Shown piece after piece: positions 38,763 to 47,236 of a stretch of DNA of 64,000 nt. Numbering within the stretch: the first letter of the stretch is position 1; each line of letters opens with the position of its first letter. Source of the DNA: Escherichia phage vB_EcoM_G2540. Below the pieces are notes generated by a model that saw only the letters and a list, made by a program, of their open reading frames with translations, had not been told where the DNA came from and did no database searches. A program made the position numbers and the translations under genes. The stretch lies in sequence record MK327936.1, one strand, 5' to 3'.

Positions 38763-40328
38763 ATGACTATCAAAACTAAAGCTGAACTTTTGAACAAATG
38801 GAAGCCATTACTGGAAGGTGAAGGTTTACCGGAAATTGCTAATAGCAAACAAGCGATTATCGCTAAAATCTTTGAAAACCAGGAAAAAGATTTCCAGACA
38901 GCTCCGGAATATAAAGACGAAAAAATTGCTCAGGCATTTGGTTCTTTCTTAACAGAAGCTGAAATCGGCGGTGACCATGGTTACAATGCTACTAACATCG
39001 CTGCAGGTCAGACTTCTGGCGCAGTAACTCAGATTGGCCCAGCTGTTATGGGTATGGTACGTCGTGCTATTCCTAACCTGATTGCTTTCGATATTTGTGG
39101 TGTTCAGCCGATGAACAGCCCGACTGGCCAGGTATTCGCATTGCGTGCAGTATATGGTAAAGACCCAGTGGCTGCCGGTGCTAAAGAAGCATTCCACCCA
39201 ATGTATGGTCCAGATGCAATGTTCTCTGGTCAGGGTGCTGCTAAGAAATTCCCAGCTCTGGCTGCTAGCACACAAACCGTTGTAGGTGATATCTATACTC
39301 ACTTCTTCCAGGAAACTGGTACTGTGTATCTGCAAGCTTCCGCTGTAGTAACAATCGATGCTGGTGCGACTGATGCTGCTAAATTAGATGCTGAAATTAA
39401 GAAACAAATGGAAGCTGGTGCACTGGTAGAAATCGCTGAAGGTATGGCTACTTCTATCGCTGAACTCCAGGAAGGTTTCAACGGTTCTACCGATAACCCA
39501 TGGAATGAAATGGGCTTCCGTATCGATAAACAAGTTATCGAAGCTAAATCTCGTCAGCTGAAAGCTGCTTACTCTATCGAATTAGCACAAGACCTCCGCG
39601 CTGTTCACGGTATGGATGCTGATGCTGAACTGTCTGGTATTCTGGCTACAGAAATTATGCTGGAAATCAACCGTGAAGTTGTTGATTGGATTAACTACTC
39701 AGCACAGGTTGGTAAATCTGGTATGACCCTGACTCCGGGTTCTAAAGCTGGTGTATTTGACTTCCAGGACCCAATCGATATTCGTGGTGCTCGCTGGGCA
39801 GGTGAATCCTTTAAAGCTCTGTTGTTCCAGATTGACAAAGAAGCAGTTGAAATTGCTCGTCAGACTGGTCGCGGCGAAGGTAACTTCATTATCGCTTCCC
39901 GTAACGTAGTTAACGTTTTGGCTTCAGTTGATACCGGCATTTCTTATGCTGCACAGGGTCTGGCTACCGGCTTCAACACTGATACTACCAAGTCAGTATT
40001 TGCTGGTGTTCTGGGTGGTAAATACCGTGTATATATCGACCAGTATGCTAAGCAGGATTATTTCACTGTAGGTTATAAAGGTCCGAACGAAATGGATGCT
40101 GGTATTTACTATGCTCCATATGTAGCTCTGACTCCGCTGCGTGGTTCCGATCCGAAGAACTTCCAACCGGTAATGGGATTCAAAACTCGTTACGGTATCG
40201 GTATCAACCCATTTGCAGAATCCGCTGCTCAGGCTCCGGCTTCTCGCATCCAGAGCGGTATGCCTTCTATTCTGAATAGCCTTGGTAAAAACGCTTACTT
40301 CCGCCGTGTATATGTTAAAGGTATCTAA
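38763..40328 (+). CDS. 23: gp23 major capsid protein
   Basis: 521 aa, highly expressed-type codon usage. Confidence 0.97.
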   Translation: MTIKTKAELLNKWKPLLEGEGLPEIANSKQAIIAKIFENQEKDFQTAPEYKDEKIAQAFGSFLTEAEIGGDHGYNATNIAAGQTSGAVTQIGPAVMGMVRRAIPNLIAFDICGVQPMNSPTGQVFALRAVYGKDPVAAGAKEAFHPMYGPDAMFSGQGAAKKFPALAASTQTVVGDIYTHFFQETGTVYLQASAVVTIDAGATDAAKLDAEIKKQMEAGALVEIAEGMATSIAELQEGFNGSTDNPWNEMGFRIDKQVIEAKSRQLKAAYSIELAQDLRAVHGMDADAELSGILATEIMLEINREVVDWINYSAQVGKSGMTLTPGSKAGVFDFQDPIDIRGARWAGESFKALLFQIDKEAVEIARQTGRGEGNFIIASRNVVNVLASVDTGISYAAQGLATGFNTDTTKSVFAGVLGGKYRVYIDQYAKQDYFTVGYKGPNEMDAGIYYAPYVALTPLRGSDPKNFQPVMGFKTRYGIGINPFAESAAQAPASRIQSGMPSILNSLGKNAYFRRVYVKGI

Positions 40329-40343
40329 TCTTTGACGATTTAA

Positions 40344-40384
40344 GGGACCTTCGGGTCCCTTTAGTTGTTTTTATGGTATAAATA
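40344..40384 (+). promoter_or_regulatory. Terminator hairpin after gene 23 (GGGACCTTCGGGTCCC + T-run) followed by late promoter TATAAATA (40377-40384) for gene 24
   Basis: Perfect 6-bp GC stem with TTCG loop then T-rich tract; exact TATAAATA 27 nt upstream of the gene 24 ATG. Confidence 0.7.
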
Positions 40385-40411
40385 AATCATATAAACCAAA
40401 AGGAAAGCGCA

Positions 40412-41695
40412 ATGGCTAAAATCAACGAACTTCTGCGCGAATCAACCACAACGAATAGCAACTCAATCGGTCGCCCAAATCTCGTTGCTTTGACTCGCGC
40501 TACCACTAAATTAATATATTCTGACATTGTAGCAACGCAAAGAACTAATCAACCTGTTGCTGCTTTTTATGGTATCAAATACCTTAACCCAGACAACGAA
40601 TTTACATTTAAAACTGGTGCTACTTACGCTGGCGAAGCTGGATATGTAGACCGAGAACAAATCACAGAATTAACAGAAGAGTCTAAATTAACTCTCAATA
40701 AAGGCGATTTATTCAAATATAATAACATCGTTTATAAAGTATTAGAAGATACTCCATTCGCTGATATTGAAGAAAGCGACTTAGAGTTAGCTCTTCAGAT
40801 TGCAATTGTTCTTTTAAAGGTTCGTCTATTTTCTGACGCAGCGTCAACAAGCAAATTTGAAAGCTCTGATAGCGAAATTGCGGATGCTAGATTTCAGATT
40901 AATAAATGGCAAACCGCGGTTAAATCTCGTAAACTTAAAACTGGTATCACAGTTGAATTAGCGCAAGATTTAGAAGCAAATGGATTCGATGCTCCTAATT
41001 TCTTGGAAGATTTGCTTGCAACTGAAATGGCAGATGAAATCAATAAAGACATTCTGCAGTCTTTGATTACAGTGTCAAAACGCTATAAAGTTACAGGAAT
41101 TACTGATAGTGGATTCATCGATTTGAGTTATGCATCTGCTCCTGAAGCTGGTCGTTCATTATACCGAATGGTATGTGAAATGGTTTCGCATATCCAAAAA
41201 GAATCAACTTATACAGCAACGTTCTGTGTTGCTTCAGCTCGTGCCGCTGCGATTCTTGCTGCATCAGGTTGGTTAAAACATAAACCAGAAGATGATAAAT
41301 ATCTTTCACAAAATGCCTATGGGTTCTTAGCTAATGGTTTACCGCTTTATTGCGATACTAACAGCCCATTAGATTATGTAATCGTTGGCGTAGTAGAAAA
41401 TATCGGTGAAAAAGAAATTGTTGGATCAATTTTCTATGCTCCGTATACAGAAGGTCTCGACTTAGATGACCCTGAACATGTAGGTGCATTTAAAGTTGTG
41501 GTTGATCCAGAAAGCTTACAACCGTCTATCGGTTTATTAGTTAGATATGCTTTATCTGCAAATCCTTACACCGTAGCAAAAGATGAAAAAGAAGCAAGAA
41601 TAATTGACGGTGGAGACATGGATAAAATGGCGGGTCGTTCAGATTTGTCTGTTTTATTAGGTGTTAAATTACCAAAAATTATTATTGATGAATAA
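40412..41695 (+). CDS. 24: gp24 capsid vertex protein
   Basis: 427 aa paralog of gp23. Confidence 0.95.
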   Translation: MAKINELLRESTTTNSNSIGRPNLVALTRATTKLIYSDIVATQRTNQPVAAFYGIKYLNPDNEFTFKTGATYAGEAGYVDREQITELTEESKLTLNKGDLFKYNNIVYKVLEDTPFADIEESDLELALQIAIVLLKVRLFSDAASTSKFESSDSEIADARFQINKWQTAVKSRKLKTGITVELAQDLEANGFDAPNFLEDLLATEMADEINKDILQSLITVSKRYKVTGITDSGFIDLSYASAPEAGRSLYRMVCEMVSHIQKESTYTATFCVASARAAAILAASGWLKHKPEDDKYLSQNAYGFLANGLPLYCDTNSPLDYVIVGVVENIGEKEIVGSIFYAPYTEGLDLDDPEHVGAFKVVVDPESLQPSIGLLVRYALSANPYTVAKDEKEARIIDGGDMDKMAGRSDLSVLLGVKLPKIIIDE

Positions 41696-41700
41696 AGCAA

Positions 41701-41723
41701 AGGGACCGAAAGGTCCCTTTTTA
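41701..41723. terminator. Bidirectional terminator between gene 24 (+) and rnlB (-)
   Basis: AGGGACCGAAAGGTCCCT palindrome flanked by A-run and T-run. Confidence 0.75.
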
Positions 41724-41724
41724 T

Positions 41725-42729
41725 TTAGCTCACCAACTCAATCCAAGCTGGACGAAGTACATCTTGTACCATTTTAACTAATTCCTTTTTAATCAAAGAA
41801 GGATTATCTGCTTGAGTTAGAGTAATACCTTCACGAGAAGTTTCTTCCAAAATATCTTGAACAGTTAGCCCCATCACCTTTCCAAAATCTTTAGGACCAA
41901 TTTCGCCAATTTTAGAAATAACGTTATTTACTCGGTTCAGTGTAACGTAACAAGCTAAAATTCCCACCAATTTGTTATCAGCTTCTGATAGCTCAACTTT
42001 AGCTTTAATAGGCTTATCAGACTTTTTCTTTTCACTAAATTTGGAATTCTTGCATTTAATTGCTACACGATTTCCATTACGAAGCCAAGAAGGATAACAA
42101 GGTTTCAATACATATCCTTCAGCGGTAAATACTTCGCCTTTTGCTTCGGCATTCCAAACGCATTTATTTGCATCAACTAATCCAGCATGGTCTACTGTAA
42201 AATTATAATCTTGGACGACAGAATCTAAATCATTTGGCAATTTAATAAGCTCTTCAAATTTACCGCGACCTAAAAGTTGAGCCATTTTAAATTTAAATGT
42301 ATTGCAGAATGATTCCATCATATAATCGTCGACATAAGTCACATCACCACTTTCTGTAGTGACAATAATGTCAAATACATAAAAATCTTTATCGCCATAA
42401 TCGACATTCTTCTGAATGCCAGGTCCAGCGAATTCGCCAAAGACTTGATAAGATACAACCGCTGAAGTTTCCATAATATCTTGCACTGCTTTAATGGAAT
42501 CAGCGTAATTCTTTAGAATAATTTCATACCCAAAGAAATCTTCAGCAGGAAGAATAGGACCAGTACGTTTAGCGCAAGTCACTTTATCACGCTCAATAAT
42601 CAACGAGAAATTTGTGCCGTGAATCTTTTCACGAGCTACCCATTCGCCGCCAGTCAATCCCAAGCTGTAAAGTTTTTCAATAAATTTAGAGTTGTAATGA
42701 TTTTCAAGACTGCTATACTTTTTAAACAT
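41725..42729 (-). CDS. rnlB: RNA ligase 2 (Rnl2)
   Basis: 334 aa; nucleotidyltransferase motif I KIHGTNFS near the N-terminus. Confidence 0.9.
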
Positions 42730-42738
42730 AATTAATCC

Positions 42739-43017
42739 TCAAAATGTAATTTCTAACCAATCACCATCACGCTGATCACTATTGACTTTAAAGCTAAATC
42801 CTTCTTTTCTAAGCCAATCACCAATTTCTTCAGTAATCAATTTATCGCGAGCAGTACAATAATAACTAAAATGTGTTTTACCTTGTTCAGCTGCTTTATT
42901 AGCAAGTTCCGAAAAATCTTTAATAAAACACTCTAGCTTAAACTGTTTACTTTTAAGTGCTTTTTCGCGTAATTGATTAGCAAAAGATTCATTTTCATAA
43001 AGATCATACTGTTCCAT
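42739..43017 (-). CDS. Hypothetical protein (24.2-like)
   Basis: 92 aa ORF. Confidence 0.55.
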   Translation of the reverse strand: MEQYDLYENESFANQLREKALKSKQFKLECFIKDFSELANKAAEQGKTHFSYYCTARDKLITEEIGDWLRKEGFSFKVNSDQRDGDWLEITF

Positions 43018-43219
43018 TTTTCACCTTTTTATTGATATGTCTTTTTCTATAGACAACTTTTTCTCGAGTTTCAAACTTATTCTTAGCAGTCATAGCTCGA
43101 GCCCATAATACAGCTACTTCTTTCGCCTGTAAGTTTAATTCACGAGCAATTTCAATGAATGACTTTCCAGACTCATGAAGAGTAAACACCACAACCTCAG
43201 TTCTCATAATCAATCTCAT
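43004..43219 (-). CDS. Hypothetical small protein, possible HTH (24.3-like)
   Basis: 71 aa; helix-turn-helix-like GKSFIEIARELNLQAKEVAVLW. Confidence 0.5.
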   Translation of the reverse strand: MRLIMRTEVVVFTLHESGKSFIEIARELNLQAKEVAVLWARAMTAKNKFETREKVVYRKRHINKKVKNGTV

Positions 43220-43288
43220 GTTATCGAGTTGGTGCCATTATATACATCATTTTCTGAGTGTGTTTTGTGTGCTTTCAAAATGAAGAAA

Positions 43289-43305
43289 GGGGGCCGAAGC
43301 CCCTT
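43289..43305 (-). terminator. Terminator hairpin after hoc (GGGGCUUCGGCCCC + U-rich)
   Basis: Same 17-nt motif ggggccgaagcccctta as at 2778-2794. Confidence 0.55.
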
Positions 43306-43309
43306 ATGA

Positions 43310-44728
43310 TTATGGATAGGTATAGATAATACCAGTTTCTAAAGCAGTTTTATGAATGATGTATCCATTACGTGATTCTTGGACATCAACTTCTGGATAG
43401 TCTTTCATCATCTTCTGAAGAGTGTAACGATGCAGGTAGTATTTACTATCTGGATCTTCAGTTTTCCAATCTTTACCTTCTTCAGTCATTTTTTGGATTT
43501 CATCCATGACCCACCAACCGCACCAGATGTAAGCTGAGCTACGGTGTGGAAGAGGATGAACATAAGGTAATTCACCTTCTGGTTCTGGAGCAACTTTATC
43601 AGTCACTTGAACTTGACCTTCTGCCGTAATAGTTTTGCTATCATAATCAGCAGCAGTAACAGTCGCAGTAACTTCAATAGTTTGACTTCCAATAGATGAG
43701 GTATCAACGGTATATACATTAGTTGACCCTTCTACAGGAGAAGAATCTTTCTTCCATGAATACTCAATTTGCGCTTCTTCTGGAGCATCAGTAACATTAG
43801 CAGTAAATGTAGCCGAAGCATCTTGTTGAACGTTAATAGAAGGAGGAGTCAATGTAACCTGTGGATTCATTGTCTTCTTATTAACTGTTAATGATACTTC
43901 ATTAGAAGTAACTTCCTTTTCATTGTAATTTTCAGCAGTTACTTGGGCTACGCATTTAATTCTTTTTACTCCACTTGTAGTTGGAGTATAGCTAAATGTA
44001 GAGTTAGTTTCTCCACCAACTTGTGAATCATCTACATACCACTGATACGTAGCAGATGCTCCATCAGGTTGAGAAACTAAAGTAGCGGTAAATTCAACAG
44101 CTGTTCCGATTACTCCAGCTGAAGGACTATCGGGAGTTACTGCCAAGGTAGTTGTCTGTGTCTTTTTATTAACAGTCAGTGACACTTCATTAGAAGTAAC
44201 TTCTTTTGCATCATAATCTGTCGCGGTTACTTGAGCCACACACTTAATTGTTTTAACTCCGCTTGTGGTAGGAGTGTAATTGAATGTAGCAGAAGTTGCT
44301 TCGCCCACAGGAGAACCGTCAACGTGCCATTGATACGTAGCAGATGCACCTGGTGGCTGCGAAGCTAAAGCGGCAGTAAATTCAATAGCTGTTCCGATTA
44401 CTCCAGCGTCAGGGCTATTAGGAGTTACAGCTAAGGTGGTCGTTTGTGTCTTATTTTGAACTGTGATAGTTGTAGTAGCTTCTGCTGTTTCAGCTTCAGC
44501 TTCTGGAACTGTATTTGTTGCAACTACTTTAATAGTCTTTTGACCGGCAGGTCCTTTTAATACATAACTAAAAGTTGCTTCAGCTCCATCTTGTGGAACA
44601 TCATCTACAGTCCAAGCATAGGTAATAGGTCCATCTCCAGTTTGACCACTGGGTGTAGCAGTAAACTGCTGAGTCTGATCTATAACTCCAGTAGGTGTTT
44701 TAGGAGTTATATCAACTGTAAAAGCCAT
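43310..44728 (-). CDS. hoc: Hoc, highly immunogenic outer capsid protein with four Ig-like modules plus capsid-binding C-terminal domain
   Basis: 472 aa; N-terminal MAFTVDITPKTPTGVIDQTQQFTATPSG and C-terminal GELPYVHPLPHRSSAYIWCGWWVMDEIQ; two adjacent about 95-aa modules starting KTQTTTLAVTP. Confidence 0.9.
   Translation of the reverse strand: MAFTVDITPKTPTGVIDQTQQFTATPSGQTGDGPITYAWTVDDVPQDGAEATFSYVLKGPAGQKTIKVVATNTVPEAEAETAEATTTITVQNKTQTTTLAVTPNSPDAGVIGTAIEFTAALASQPPGASATYQWHVDGSPVGEATSATFNYTPTTSGVKTIKCVAQVTATDYDAKEVTSNEVSLTVNKKTQTTTLAVTPDSPSAGVIGTAVEFTATLVSQPDGASATYQWYVDDSQVGGETNSTFSYTPTTSGVKRIKCVAQVTAENYNEKEVTSNEVSLTVNKKTMNPQVTLTPPSINVQQDASATFTANVTDAPEEAQIEYSWKKDSSPVEGSTNVYTVDTSSIGSQTIEVTATVTAADYDSKTITAEGQVQVTDKVAPEPEGELPYVHPLPHRSSAYIWCGWWVMDEIQKMTEEGKDWKTEDPDSKYYLHRYTLQKMMKDYPEVDVQESRNGYIIHKTALETGIIYTYP
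43867..44455 (-). repeat. Diverged tandem duplication (about 290 bp x 2) encoding two similar Ig-like modules of Hoc
   Basis: Protein repeats KTQTTTLAVTP...VSLTVNKKT occur twice in tandem; unit boundaries approximate. Confidence 0.7.
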
Positions 44729-44737
44729 AAGTTATCC

Positions 44738-45418
44738 TTATTTTAATGTTACGAAAGAAGAATTGCGTGTTTCACGAATTAAAACTGATCCGTCGCGGTT
44801 AATGTAATAAATTAAGCTAAATAAAGTTTGGTGTGCTGACGCATGTTCAAAACTAGTTGGGTGAGATTTCCAATCCGGAGTTTCAGCAATCCATTGATAA
44901 ATCCACCAAGGAACAGTACAGAATCCTGGATTTTTTCCAATCAGCTGAAGATTCGGACTAAAGTTTTCCGGAAGAGTAAATACAGACGGCTTTTCAGATT
45001 CAACAATCTCAGCTACAGCCTGTTCGAATTTTTCTTCAACAAAAGGAGTATCTTCAATCAAAACTGAGGTATTTTCAGGAATTTTATCCGTTTCTACTAC
45101 TTCAATTTTAATGTCAGATTTAACCGGAGAATCAATCAGAAGTGCTGCTTCTGGATTGACTTCTTCATCGTCATATTTTAATCCCTCTGCGGCATCAGCA
45201 GCATCAATTAGGTCTTTAATAGATAACCCATCAGTCTCTGGCATAGGTTCACTAGCGAGCTTCTGGAGGGCTTCTTCAATATCAACAACGATATTATCAA
45301 AAGATTTATTCTTTTTGACCTTTATACCAAACTGTTCAGCATATTCAGCTAATTTAGCTTTAGCTTCTTTGTTATCATCAAGAGCCTTCAGCTCTGCAAT
45401 ATAATCTTTATCTATCAT
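44738..45418 (-). CDS. inh: Inh, inhibitor of prohead protease
   Basis: 226 aa; position between hoc and uvsW as in T4. Confidence 0.8.
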   Translation of the reverse strand: MIDKDYIAELKALDDNKEAKAKLAEYAEQFGIKVKKNKSFDNIVVDIEEALQKLASEPMPETDGLSIKDLIDAADAAEGLKYDDEEVNPEAALLIDSPVKSDIKIEVVETDKIPENTSVLIEDTPFVEEKFEQAVAEIVESEKPSVFTLPENFSPNLQLIGKNPGFCTVPWWIYQWIAETPDWKSHPTSFEHASAHQTLFSLIYYINRDGSVLIRETRNSSFVTLK

Positions 45419-45431
45419 AATATTTCCTCAG

Positions 45432-45439
45432 TATAAATA
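45432..45439 (+). promoter_or_regulatory. Late-type TATAAATA box upstream of uvsW
   Basis: cagTATAAATAtag 30 nt upstream of the uvsW ATG. Confidence 0.4.
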
Positions 45440-45468
45440 TAGATATATTTATTACATGGTATTTAGAC

Positions 45469-46980
45469 ATGACTGACATTAAAGTACATTTTTATGATTT
45501 TAGTCACGTGAGAATTGACTGTGAAGAAAGTACATTTCATGAACTCCGTGATTTCTTTAGCTTTGAAGCTGATGGGTATCGTTTTAATCCGAAATACAAA
45601 TATGGCCACTGGGATGGACGAATCCGTCTTTTAGATTATAATCGTCTTCTTCCATTCGGCTTAGTCGGGCAAATTAAAAAGTTCTGTGATAACTTTGGCT
45701 ATAAAGCCTGGATTGACCCACAAATTAACGAAAAAGAAGAATTATCAAGAAAAGATTTTGATGAATGGCTTTCTAAATTAGAAATCTATTCAGGAAATAA
45801 AAGAATTGAACCACACTGGTATCAAAAAGATGCAGTGTTCGAAGGATTAGTTAATCGTCGTAGAATTCTTAATCTTCCAACATCTGCAGGTAAATCTTTA
45901 ATTCAAGCTTTGCTTGCGCGGTATTATTTGGAAAATTATGAAGGTAAAATTCTTATCATTGTTCCAACAACTGCTCTGACAACTCAGATGGCTGATGACT
46001 TCGTCGACTATCGTTTATTCAGCCATGCAATGATAAAGAAAATTGGTGGCGGAGCATCAAAAGATGATAAATATAAAAATGATGCACCAGTCGTTGTTGG
46101 TACATGGCAAACTGTAGTTAAACAACCAAAAGAATGGTTCTCACAGTTTGGAATGATGATGAATGATGAATGCCATCTTGCTACAGGAAAAAGTATTTCA
46201 TCTATCATATCAGGTTTAAATAACTGTATGTTTAAATTTGGTCTATCTGGTTCATTACGTGATGGCAAAGCCAATATCATGCAGTATGTTGGAATGTTTG
46301 GTGAAATATTTAAGCCAGTAACGACTTCTAAGTTAATGGAAGATGGACAAGTAACTGAGCTAAAAATTAATAGTATTTTTCTTCGCTATCCCGATGAGTT
46401 CACTACTAAATTAAAGGGAAAAACTTATCAAGAAGAAATAAAAATTATTACTGGGCTTAGTAAAAGAAATAAATGGATCGCTAAATTAGCTATTAAGCTT
46501 GCGCAAAAAGATGAAAACGCTTTTGTCATGTTTAAACATGTATCACATGGTAAAGCTATTTTCGATTTAATTAAAAATGAATACGATAAAGTTTATTACG
46601 TATCAGGGGAAGTTGATACCGAAACCCGCAATATAATGAAAACCTTAGCTGAAAATGGTAAAGGAATAATTATAGTAGCTAGTTATGGTGTATTTTCTAC
46701 TGGTATTTCAGTTAAAAATCTGCATCATGTTGTTTTAGCGCACGGTGTTAAATCAAAAATCATTGTATTACAAACAATCGGTCGTGTATTACGTAAGCAT
46801 GGTTCTAAGACAATAGCAACCGTCTGGGACCTCATAGATGATTGTGGCGTTAAGCCAAAATCTGCTAATACGAAAAAGAAATATGTTCATTTGAACTATC
46901 TTTTAAAACACGGCATTGATCGTATTCAGCGCTACGCAGATGAAAAATTTAATTACGTAATGAAAACAGTTAATTTATAA
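45469..46980 (+). CDS. uvsW: UvsW DNA/RNA helicase (SF2)
   Basis: 503 aa; Walker A PTSAGKS, DExH-like MMNDECH, helicase C-terminal motifs. Confidence 0.93.
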   Translation: MTDIKVHFYDFSHVRIDCEESTFHELRDFFSFEADGYRFNPKYKYGHWDGRIRLLDYNRLLPFGLVGQIKKFCDNFGYKAWIDPQINEKEELSRKDFDEWLSKLEIYSGNKRIEPHWYQKDAVFEGLVNRRRILNLPTSAGKSLIQALLARYYLENYEGKILIIVPTTALTTQMADDFVDYRLFSHAMIKKIGGGASKDDKYKNDAPVVVGTWQTVVKQPKEWFSQFGMMMNDECHLATGKSISSIISGLNNCMFKFGLSGSLRDGKANIMQYVGMFGEIFKPVTTSKLMEDGQVTELKINSIFLRYPDEFTTKLKGKTYQEEIKIITGLSKRNKWIAKLAIKLAQKDENAFVMFKHVSHGKAIFDLIKNEYDKVYYVSGEVDTETRNIMKTLAENGKGIIIVASYGVFSTGISVKNLHHVVLAHGVKSKIIVLQTIGRVLRKHGSKTIATVWDLIDDCGVKPKSANTKKKYVHLNYLLKHGIDRIQRYADEKFNYVMKTVNL

Positions 46981-46993
46981 GGGCTTCGGCCCT

Positions 46994-47236
46994 TTGGAGA
47001 AAAAGATGTTACTAGAATTTAAACAATTTCTTTATGAAGCTTCTATTGATGAATTTATGGGTAAAATTGCCTCTTGTCAAACATTAGAAGGTTTAGAAGA
47101 ACTTGAAGCTTATTATAAGAAAAGAGTTAAAGAAACTGAATTAAAAGATACTGATGACATCTCTGTGAGAGATGCTTTGGCAGGAAAAAGAGCTGAATTA
47201 GAAGATTCAGATGATGAAGTAGAAGAAAGCTTTTAA
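46994..47236 (+). CDS. uvsW.1: UvsW.1 small acidic protein
   Basis: 80 aa ORF directly after uvsW (likely start at the internal Met MLLEFKQ...). Confidence 0.7.
   Translation: MEKKMLLEFKQFLYEASIDEFMGKIASCQTLEGLEELEAYYKKRVKETELKDTDDISVRDALAGKRAELEDSDDEVEESF

Follow-up and report, generated by a model that had tools for sequence, protein, structure and literature searches.

The 472-codon open reading frame examined here is very probably a two-copy length allele of the Tequatrovirus hoc gene. On this reading, the unit encoding Ig-like domain 2 belongs to an ordered array of one to three copies, which would go back to an old duplication, turn over by recombination and lengthen the Hoc fibre on the capsid. 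Hoc is present in 155 copies per T4 head and is dispensable for infectivity. The gene lies in a 64-kb stretch (hereafter, the window) of Escherichia phage vB_EcoM_G2540 (MK327936.1), and it is a real but ordinary length variant: the protein is known, and the allele class to which the gene belongs is common.

The source genome is T4-like (Tequatrovirus), and the 16 kb around hoc are ~98% identical to many genomes of this genus, e.g. VEc74, KK4, Sf22, and teqskov. When the list of open reading frames was set against the NC_000866 annotation, the order 24, rnlB, 24.2, 24.3, hoc, inh, and uvsW proved to be that of T4; the same list contains no opposite-strand frame of at least 60 amino acids inside hoc. 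The genes (neighbours placed by T4 gene order) and putative signals of the locus are as follows:

38763-40328, plus strand: gp23
40412-41695, plus strand: gp24
41725-42729, minus strand: rnlB
between rnlB and hoc, minus strand: 24.2 and 24.3
43280..43305, minus strand: terminator-like hairpin (GGGGC-TTCG-GCCCC) with a T-rich tail, 4-6 nt past the hoc stop codon
43310..44728, minus strand: hoc coding sequence from the list of open reading frames, ATG start, 472 aa, stop codon at 43310-43312
44735..44739, minus strand: Shine-Dalgarno-like AAGGA, read from the sequence, 6 nt 5' of the hoc ATG and overlapping the inh stop codon
44738..45418, minus strand: inh (prohead protease inhibitor), the upstream neighbour of hoc (PHROG 1051, E 2.5e-102; 98.2% nt identity to T4 inh)
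45469-46980, plus strand: uvsW

Homology bears out the name given to the frame in the preliminary description. Against PHROG 1149 ('Hoc-like head decoration'), the protein gives an E value of 2e-140, and against the PDB chains of T4 Hoc (5vf3_Z, 8t1x, 8t9r, and others) an E value of 5e-226, the latter aligning in two stretches that skip the module we call A below. Together with the conserved gene order, these matches identify 43310..44728 as Hoc, the T4-type head outer capsid decoration protein.

Several features of the neighbourhood were recorded alongside. The T4 late-promoter motif TATAAATA occurs 25 times in the window, with 10 occurrences expected, and is found on the plus strand at 45432-45439 and 40377-40384, just 5' of uvsW and gene 24, respectively. 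Upstream of inh-hoc, the minus strand carries no such motif between 45418 and 47485, and a scan for sigma-70 promoters returned scores no better than those of shuffled sequences. The homing-endonuclease genes segE and segD, which flank the region in T4, are both absent here: the inh-uvsW gap (45419-45468) measures 50 nt as opposed to 669 nt with segE in T4, and the gp23-gp24 gap (40329-40411), where T4 has segD, measures 83 nt. The uvsW gene itself is a frame of 503 aa and is followed by a separate 80-aa frame with a TTG start (46994-47236), while the T4 RefSeq record annotates a single uvsW of 1764 nt with a note on sequence discrepancies at this place. The homologue of gp24.3 (43004-43219, minus strand) has 71 aa (216 nt) compared to 56 aa (171 nt) in T4; the common part is 98.8% identical at the nucleotide level, and the difference in length probably reflects a different choice of start codon.

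Along its length, the Hoc protein divides into five units:

44453..44728, minus strand: Ig-like domain 1 (D1), aa 1-92; 89.5% nt identity to T4 domain 1, all-beta, pLDDT ~83-93
44165..44452, minus strand: tandem module A, aa 93-188, domain-2-type, Ig/PKD-like; 77.8% nt identity to T4 domain 2, pLDDT ~90
43877..44164, minus strand: tandem module B, aa 189-284, domain-2-type, Ig/PKD-like; 88.9% nt identity to T4 domain 2, pLDDT ~93
43589..43876, minus strand: Ig-like domain 3 in T4 numbering (D3; the fourth Ig-like module here), aa 285-380; 86.5% nt identity to T4 domain 3, all-beta
43313..43588, minus strand: C-terminal capsid-binding domain, aa 381-472; 97.1% nt identity to T4, PHROGs 1149 and 21694

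Modules A and B form a tandem domain duplication, with head-to-tail, in-frame units of equal length. Tandem Repeats Finder places the repeat at 43871-44452 with a period of 288, 2.0 copies, 78% matches, and a score of 705, and a second repeat search likewise returned two in-register copies of 288 nt at 77% identity. The modules share 77 of 96 amino acids (80%) and 221 of 288 nucleotides, far above chance, in agreement with the clear but not recent similarity that had been proposed for two adjacent modules of about 95 aa. Both open with KTQTTTLAVTP, and VSLTVNKKT is present in each, lying across the module end. Short linkers of similar sequence mark the unit boundaries; they read AAT AAG ACA at the D1/A junction and AAT AA(A/G) AAG ACA at the A/B and B/D3 junctions and encode N-K-(K)-T. 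More distant relationships connect the repeat to its flanks: in BLASTP comparisons, identities of 28-38% were obtained for D1 and D3, both with the repeat modules and between the two (E 1e-9 to 1e-14), D1 reaching 37-38% with modules A and B, compared to the 80% between A and B. All four Ig-like modules are thus mutually homologous, with A and B by far the closest pair, and the gene therefore bears the record of an ancient triplication, followed by a later duplication of the middle unit.

Structure prediction agrees with this partition. An AlphaFold2 model built from 43 homologues (mean pLDDT 84) contains four all-beta domains at residues 1-91, 93-187, 189-283, and 287-376, each with a pLDDT of ~90, and in the PDB, Foldseek matched it best to four-Ig-domain strings, namely Dscam1 Ig1-4, ICAM-5 D1-D4, and Sidekick Ig1-4 (E ~1e-13). 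In profile searches, Pfam PKD scores above its curated cut-off (31.8 vs 23.5 bits) in two stretches, the best at aa 195-267, while the matches of Ig_3 and I-set to aa 289-373 stay below their cut-offs. Taken together, model, Foldseek, and Pfam support an N-terminal linear string of Ig-like domains, as in Hoc, and the two flanking Ig-like modules anticipated in the preliminary description are present. The C-terminal segment is poorly modelled (pLDDT 41-69), and the case for capsid binding therefore rests on its sequence identity to T4: aa 381-472 are homologous to T4 Hoc residues ~281-376, the capsid-binding domain, with 91 of 92 residues unchanged, and this segment alone matches the Hoc-like head decoration families PHROG 1149 (E 6.5e-54) and PHROG 21694 (E 6.5e-43).

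T4 Hoc (NC_000866, NP_049793.1) has 376 aa and consists of three Ig-like domains and the capsid-binding domain, just as the preliminary description has it, so that neither its length nor its module count equals that of the G2540 protein. In a global alignment, the two proteins are separated by one clean gap of 96 aa. The single domain 2 of T4 is 88.9% identical to module B and 77.8% identical to module A at the nucleotide level, and a short stretch close to its end resembles A. Module A is the 'extra' copy relative to T4 and is without a close counterpart there. As to divergence, modules A and B are separated by a dS of 1.19 and a dN of 0.12 (dN/dS 0.10). D1, module B, and D3 differ from their T4 counterparts by a dS of 0.27-0.33 and a dN of 0.07-0.10 (dN/dS 0.25-0.30), and for the capsid-binding domain these values fall to a dS of 0.145 and a dN of 0.004 (dN/dS 0.03). 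The synonymous distances indicate that the A/B duplication is several times as old as the divergence of the G2540 allele from that of T4, and the low dN/dS indicates that both modules have been kept as working domains under purifying selection. The Ig-coding part of hoc (43589-44728) also stands out as a sharp local hot spot of divergence, with 86-90% nt identity to T4, while its flanks (40412-43219 and 44738-45418, covering gp24, rnlB, 24.2, and inh) and the capsid-binding domain remain at 97-98%. This pattern agrees with the published view that the anchor is conserved and the Ig-like domains vary (PMC10385173).

The preliminary description implied that a Hoc with four Ig-like modules is unusual, and this part did not hold. 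The hoc gene matches 655 phage records, 594 of which cover at least 80% of the query. Coverage does not separate the length classes, because the one module of shorter genes (e.g. FL08 and T4) matches both query copies as two pieces and thereby reaches 100%; record spans were therefore scored for 60 rows sampled at even intervals. A two-module span (1419-1425 bp, or one piece across both modules) was found in 22 rows and a one-module span (~1131 bp, T4 included) in 32; one row was ambiguous (G29, 1474 bp in two pieces) and five were partial. The two-module form thus accounts for 22 of 55 scorable records (~40%). RB27 and AR1, both classical isolates, carry it, and so do slur02, teqskov, PhiZZ30, and several BASEL phages. 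In many cases the gene is already annotated, be it under the name Hoc, head outer capsid protein, PKD domain protein, or capsid whiskers protein. The closest gene is that of Escherichia phage EC128 (97.8% nt identity), and the best-matching protein cluster representative, P0009, is 95% identical at the amino acid level. Among the best 120 protein clusters, 81 have lengths of 376-378 aa, 30 of 468-472 aa, and nine of 567-570 aa; the lengths 376, 472, and 568 aa follow each other in exact steps of 96 aa. Escherichia phages UGKSEcP1 and UGKSEcP2 and some metagenomic contigs have the 568-aa, three-module form. In T2, the hoc region (AP018813.1, 105464-106580) is 1117 bp long instead of 1131, and its annotation is split into at least two separate head outer capsid protein features, which suggests that the T2 gene is disrupted.

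Clustering of 169 modules of the domain-2 type yields three types, A, B, and C, with soft boundaries (~89% identity within types and 77-82% between them). Type A comes first in nearly every multi-module protein, B is usually second, and C is usually third. Proteins of 376 aa were found with a single A, B, or C module, those of 472 aa with A-B, A-C, or B-C, and those of 568 aa with A-B-C or A-B-B; the order A, B, C is nearly always kept, and none of these arrangements is reversed. G2540 Hoc is typed A-B and T4 Hoc is typed B. Differences between the types cluster at module positions 12-24, 46-58, 64-69, and 78-82. Mosaic modules are frequent, including that of T4 with its B-type centre and A-type tail, and the ordered array is a simplification of what is a network shaped by recombination. 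Beyond these types, another domain-2-type module, with a consensus like KAQTTTLAVTPASPAAVEIGTATTFTANVSNQP, was seen in P0039 (472 aa) and P0041 (567 aa); this module is much more divergent and falls outside A, B, and C, and the repertoire is therefore wider than three types.

Comparisons between phages, made on proteins only, suggest that whole units have repeatedly been gained, lost, and shuffled through homologous recombination between repeats. The nearest neighbour in D1, D3, and anchor shares the copy number in 79 of 120 cases, with 53% expected by chance; by this measure, copy number tracks the rest of the protein weakly, and some identical backbones differ in copy number. P0016 equals P0007 minus the third module, the second modules being identical at 96 of 96 positions, and P0033 (A-C) and P0067 (C only) have an identical C module on backbones that are 0.7% apart. 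Module 1 of P0034 consists of the first 15 residues of P0007 module 1 and the remainder of P0007 module 2, a chimera of the kind expected as the product of an out-of-register crossover.

Mis-assembly can affect tandem repeats, and the repeat in G2540 might on this ground be an artefact of assembly or sequencing, or else include one copy that is a decaying, non-functional duplicate. We give this reading next to no chance. The copies differ at 67 of 288 nucleotides and therefore do not represent a collapsed or duplicated read; both modules are also modelled at a high pLDDT (~90). The divergence of 23%, the intact reading frame, a dN/dS of 0.10, and the recurrence of the same 1419-bp architecture in many independently sequenced genomes effectively rule out both variants. 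A second alternative concerns the direction of change. The long form could be ancestral and the 376-aa Hoc of T4 a deletion derivative, in which case G2540 would display the default state and no 'extra' module at all; we place the probability of this a little short of even. It is favoured by the divergence of A and B, which much exceeds that between the G2540 and T4 alleles (dS 1.19 vs ~0.3), by the existence of single-module alleles of all three types, as deletions from an A-B-C array would produce them, and by the many single modules that are mosaics of types. However, an equal pattern is possible if A, B, and C were single-copy alleles that were joined later: arrays could have formed by out-of-register recombination between single-copy alleles during co-infection, instead of single-copy forms arising by deletion. 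Typing the head, centre, and tail of one-copy modules in search of an excess of A-type heads with B-type tails gave mosaics of all kinds, and this segment typing carries no directional conclusion because the tail holds four informative positions and mosaics are common. Whichever direction applies, the ancestral-long-form alternative concerns the history of the gene only, with its identity and action unchanged.

A third alternative concerns action rather than history: the additional module might work by a new binding specificity or a higher avidity, for another glycan or bacterial surface ligand, and not by the length of the fibre. The Ig domain that binds MUC2/fucose varies by phage, since PNJ-6 uses domain 1 and PNJ-9 uses domain 2 (PMC11150434, PMC11853027), and the concentration of the A/B/C differences in a few stretches would suit such a role. 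The whole-module dN/dS is nevertheless well below 1, so that positive selection is not evident at this resolution, and we regard this alternative as unlikely on balance. We also considered a bolder account, in which the domain-2 region would act as a rapidly switching array of ordered cassettes (A, B, and C, in one to three copies) and would resemble a contingency locus of the capsid. Unequal recombination would change its copy number over short evolutionary time, and selection would maintain the variation since fibre length or Ig valency would tune adherence, dispersal, or antibody evasion in different environments. The recurrent turnover of whole units that this account presupposes is supported by the protein comparisons; the account as a whole we hold to be speculative and rather improbable.

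The reading that we prefer, i.e. an old two-copy allele of a recombining array, can be spelled out as a sequence of steps. An early in-frame tandem duplication of the domain-2 unit would have given rise to modules A and B. In the population, this unit is present once, twice, or three times, as an ordered series of types A, B, and C; out-of-register homologous recombination among these repeats would most likely account for the gain, loss, and shuffling of copies, and the 376-aa form of T4 would be the one-copy state with a mostly B-type module. T4 Hoc forms a fibre of 180 Angstrom with four domains, the C-terminal one of which binds the centre of the gp23 hexamer (PMC10385173). By homology, the C-terminal domain of G2540 Hoc would anchor one molecule at each hexamer centre and the Ig string would project outward from the capsid as a fibre. 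Binding at gp23 hexamer centres has very likely been retained, and since the capsid-binding domain and gp23/gp24 are nearly identical to those of T4, we infer that each gp23 hexamer of the mature capsid carries one Hoc molecule. The additional module would then add ~45 Angstrom to the 180 Angstrom of the T4 fibre, along with one more potential glycan- or surface-binding unit. A longer fibre is what we infer for two-module Hoc by analogy with T4, and altered adherence to mucin or the host is plausible on the same ground.

The G2540 gene itself matters little, being a normal, common allele that public annotations already call Hoc. Of wider relevance is that T4 is unrepresentative of its genus for Hoc length, and the assumption of a 376-aa protein with three Ig-like domains is therefore wrong for about two in five relatives. 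Work on Hoc-based display, mucus adherence, and phage pharmacokinetics is affected by this assumption. At the same time, the one-, two-, and three-copy series on near-identical backbones offers a ready-made set for relating fibre length or Ig valency to mucin binding, aggregation, and immunogenicity.

Variation in the number of Hoc Ig domains is already published (PMC10385173, PMC11150434, PMC11853027, PMC13435897). Hoc proteins have been described as variable Ig-like domains on a conserved anchor, with 650 homologues carrying Ig-like strings from one domain (PG7) to ten (Serratia phage Muldoon) (PMC10385173); T4-like phages vary in the number and arrangement of their Hoc domains (PMC11150434), and PNJ-9 has a three-domain variant without domain 3 (PMC11853027). 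Mucin or fucose binding has been assigned to Hoc Ig domains (PMC11150434, PMC11853027, PMC13435897), and a role in virion dispersion has also been reported (PMC10385173). Experimental evidence for binding of mucin glycans (e.g. fucose on MUC2; BAM model) is limited to T4, PNJ-6, PNJ-9, and PMBT63 (PMC11150434, PMC11853027, PMC13435897). Our literature searches returned general remarks that domain number varies and a single example with four Ig domains, from a Klebsiella phage, and found no paper describing the 472-aa duplication of Tequatrovirus, the one-, two-, and three-copy series, or the A-B-C order. The copy series and the module order add modestly to the description of Hoc and do not amount to a new kind of system.

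Set beside its relatives, G2540 Hoc is closest to the 472-aa alleles of other Tequatrovirus phages (EC128, VEc74, RB27, AR1, slur02, teqskov, PhiZZ30, and the BASEL phages AdolfPortmann and WilhelmHis), which have an identical architecture and length and are ~90-98% identical at the nucleotide level; the differences are allelic only, the span in AR1 being 1425 bp. The 568-aa Hoc proteins of UGKSEcP1 and UGKSEcP2 have D1, D3, the capsid-binding backbone, and the A-then-B start of the array in common with it, but contain a third module, usually of type C, and hence five Ig-like modules. T4 Hoc occupies the same locus between inh and 24.3 and is collinear in D1, D2 (B-type), D3, and the capsid-binding domain, whereas the G2540 protein is 96 aa longer through module A and has four Ig-like modules instead of three. 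The Hoc-like protein of Klebsiella phage PMBT63, which belongs to a different genus and is set side by side here from its published description, has 468 aa, four Ig-like domains, and ~46% identity to T4 Hoc (PMC13435897). Finally, the homologues of Muldoon, PG7, PNJ-9, and RB49 (crystal structure) follow the common design of a conserved capsid-binding domain and a variable Ig-like string (PMC10385173, PMC11853027), but they represent other module numbers or lineages and are not described as a tandem array of one to three copies within one genus, which is the form that the domain-2 unit takes in Tequatrovirus.
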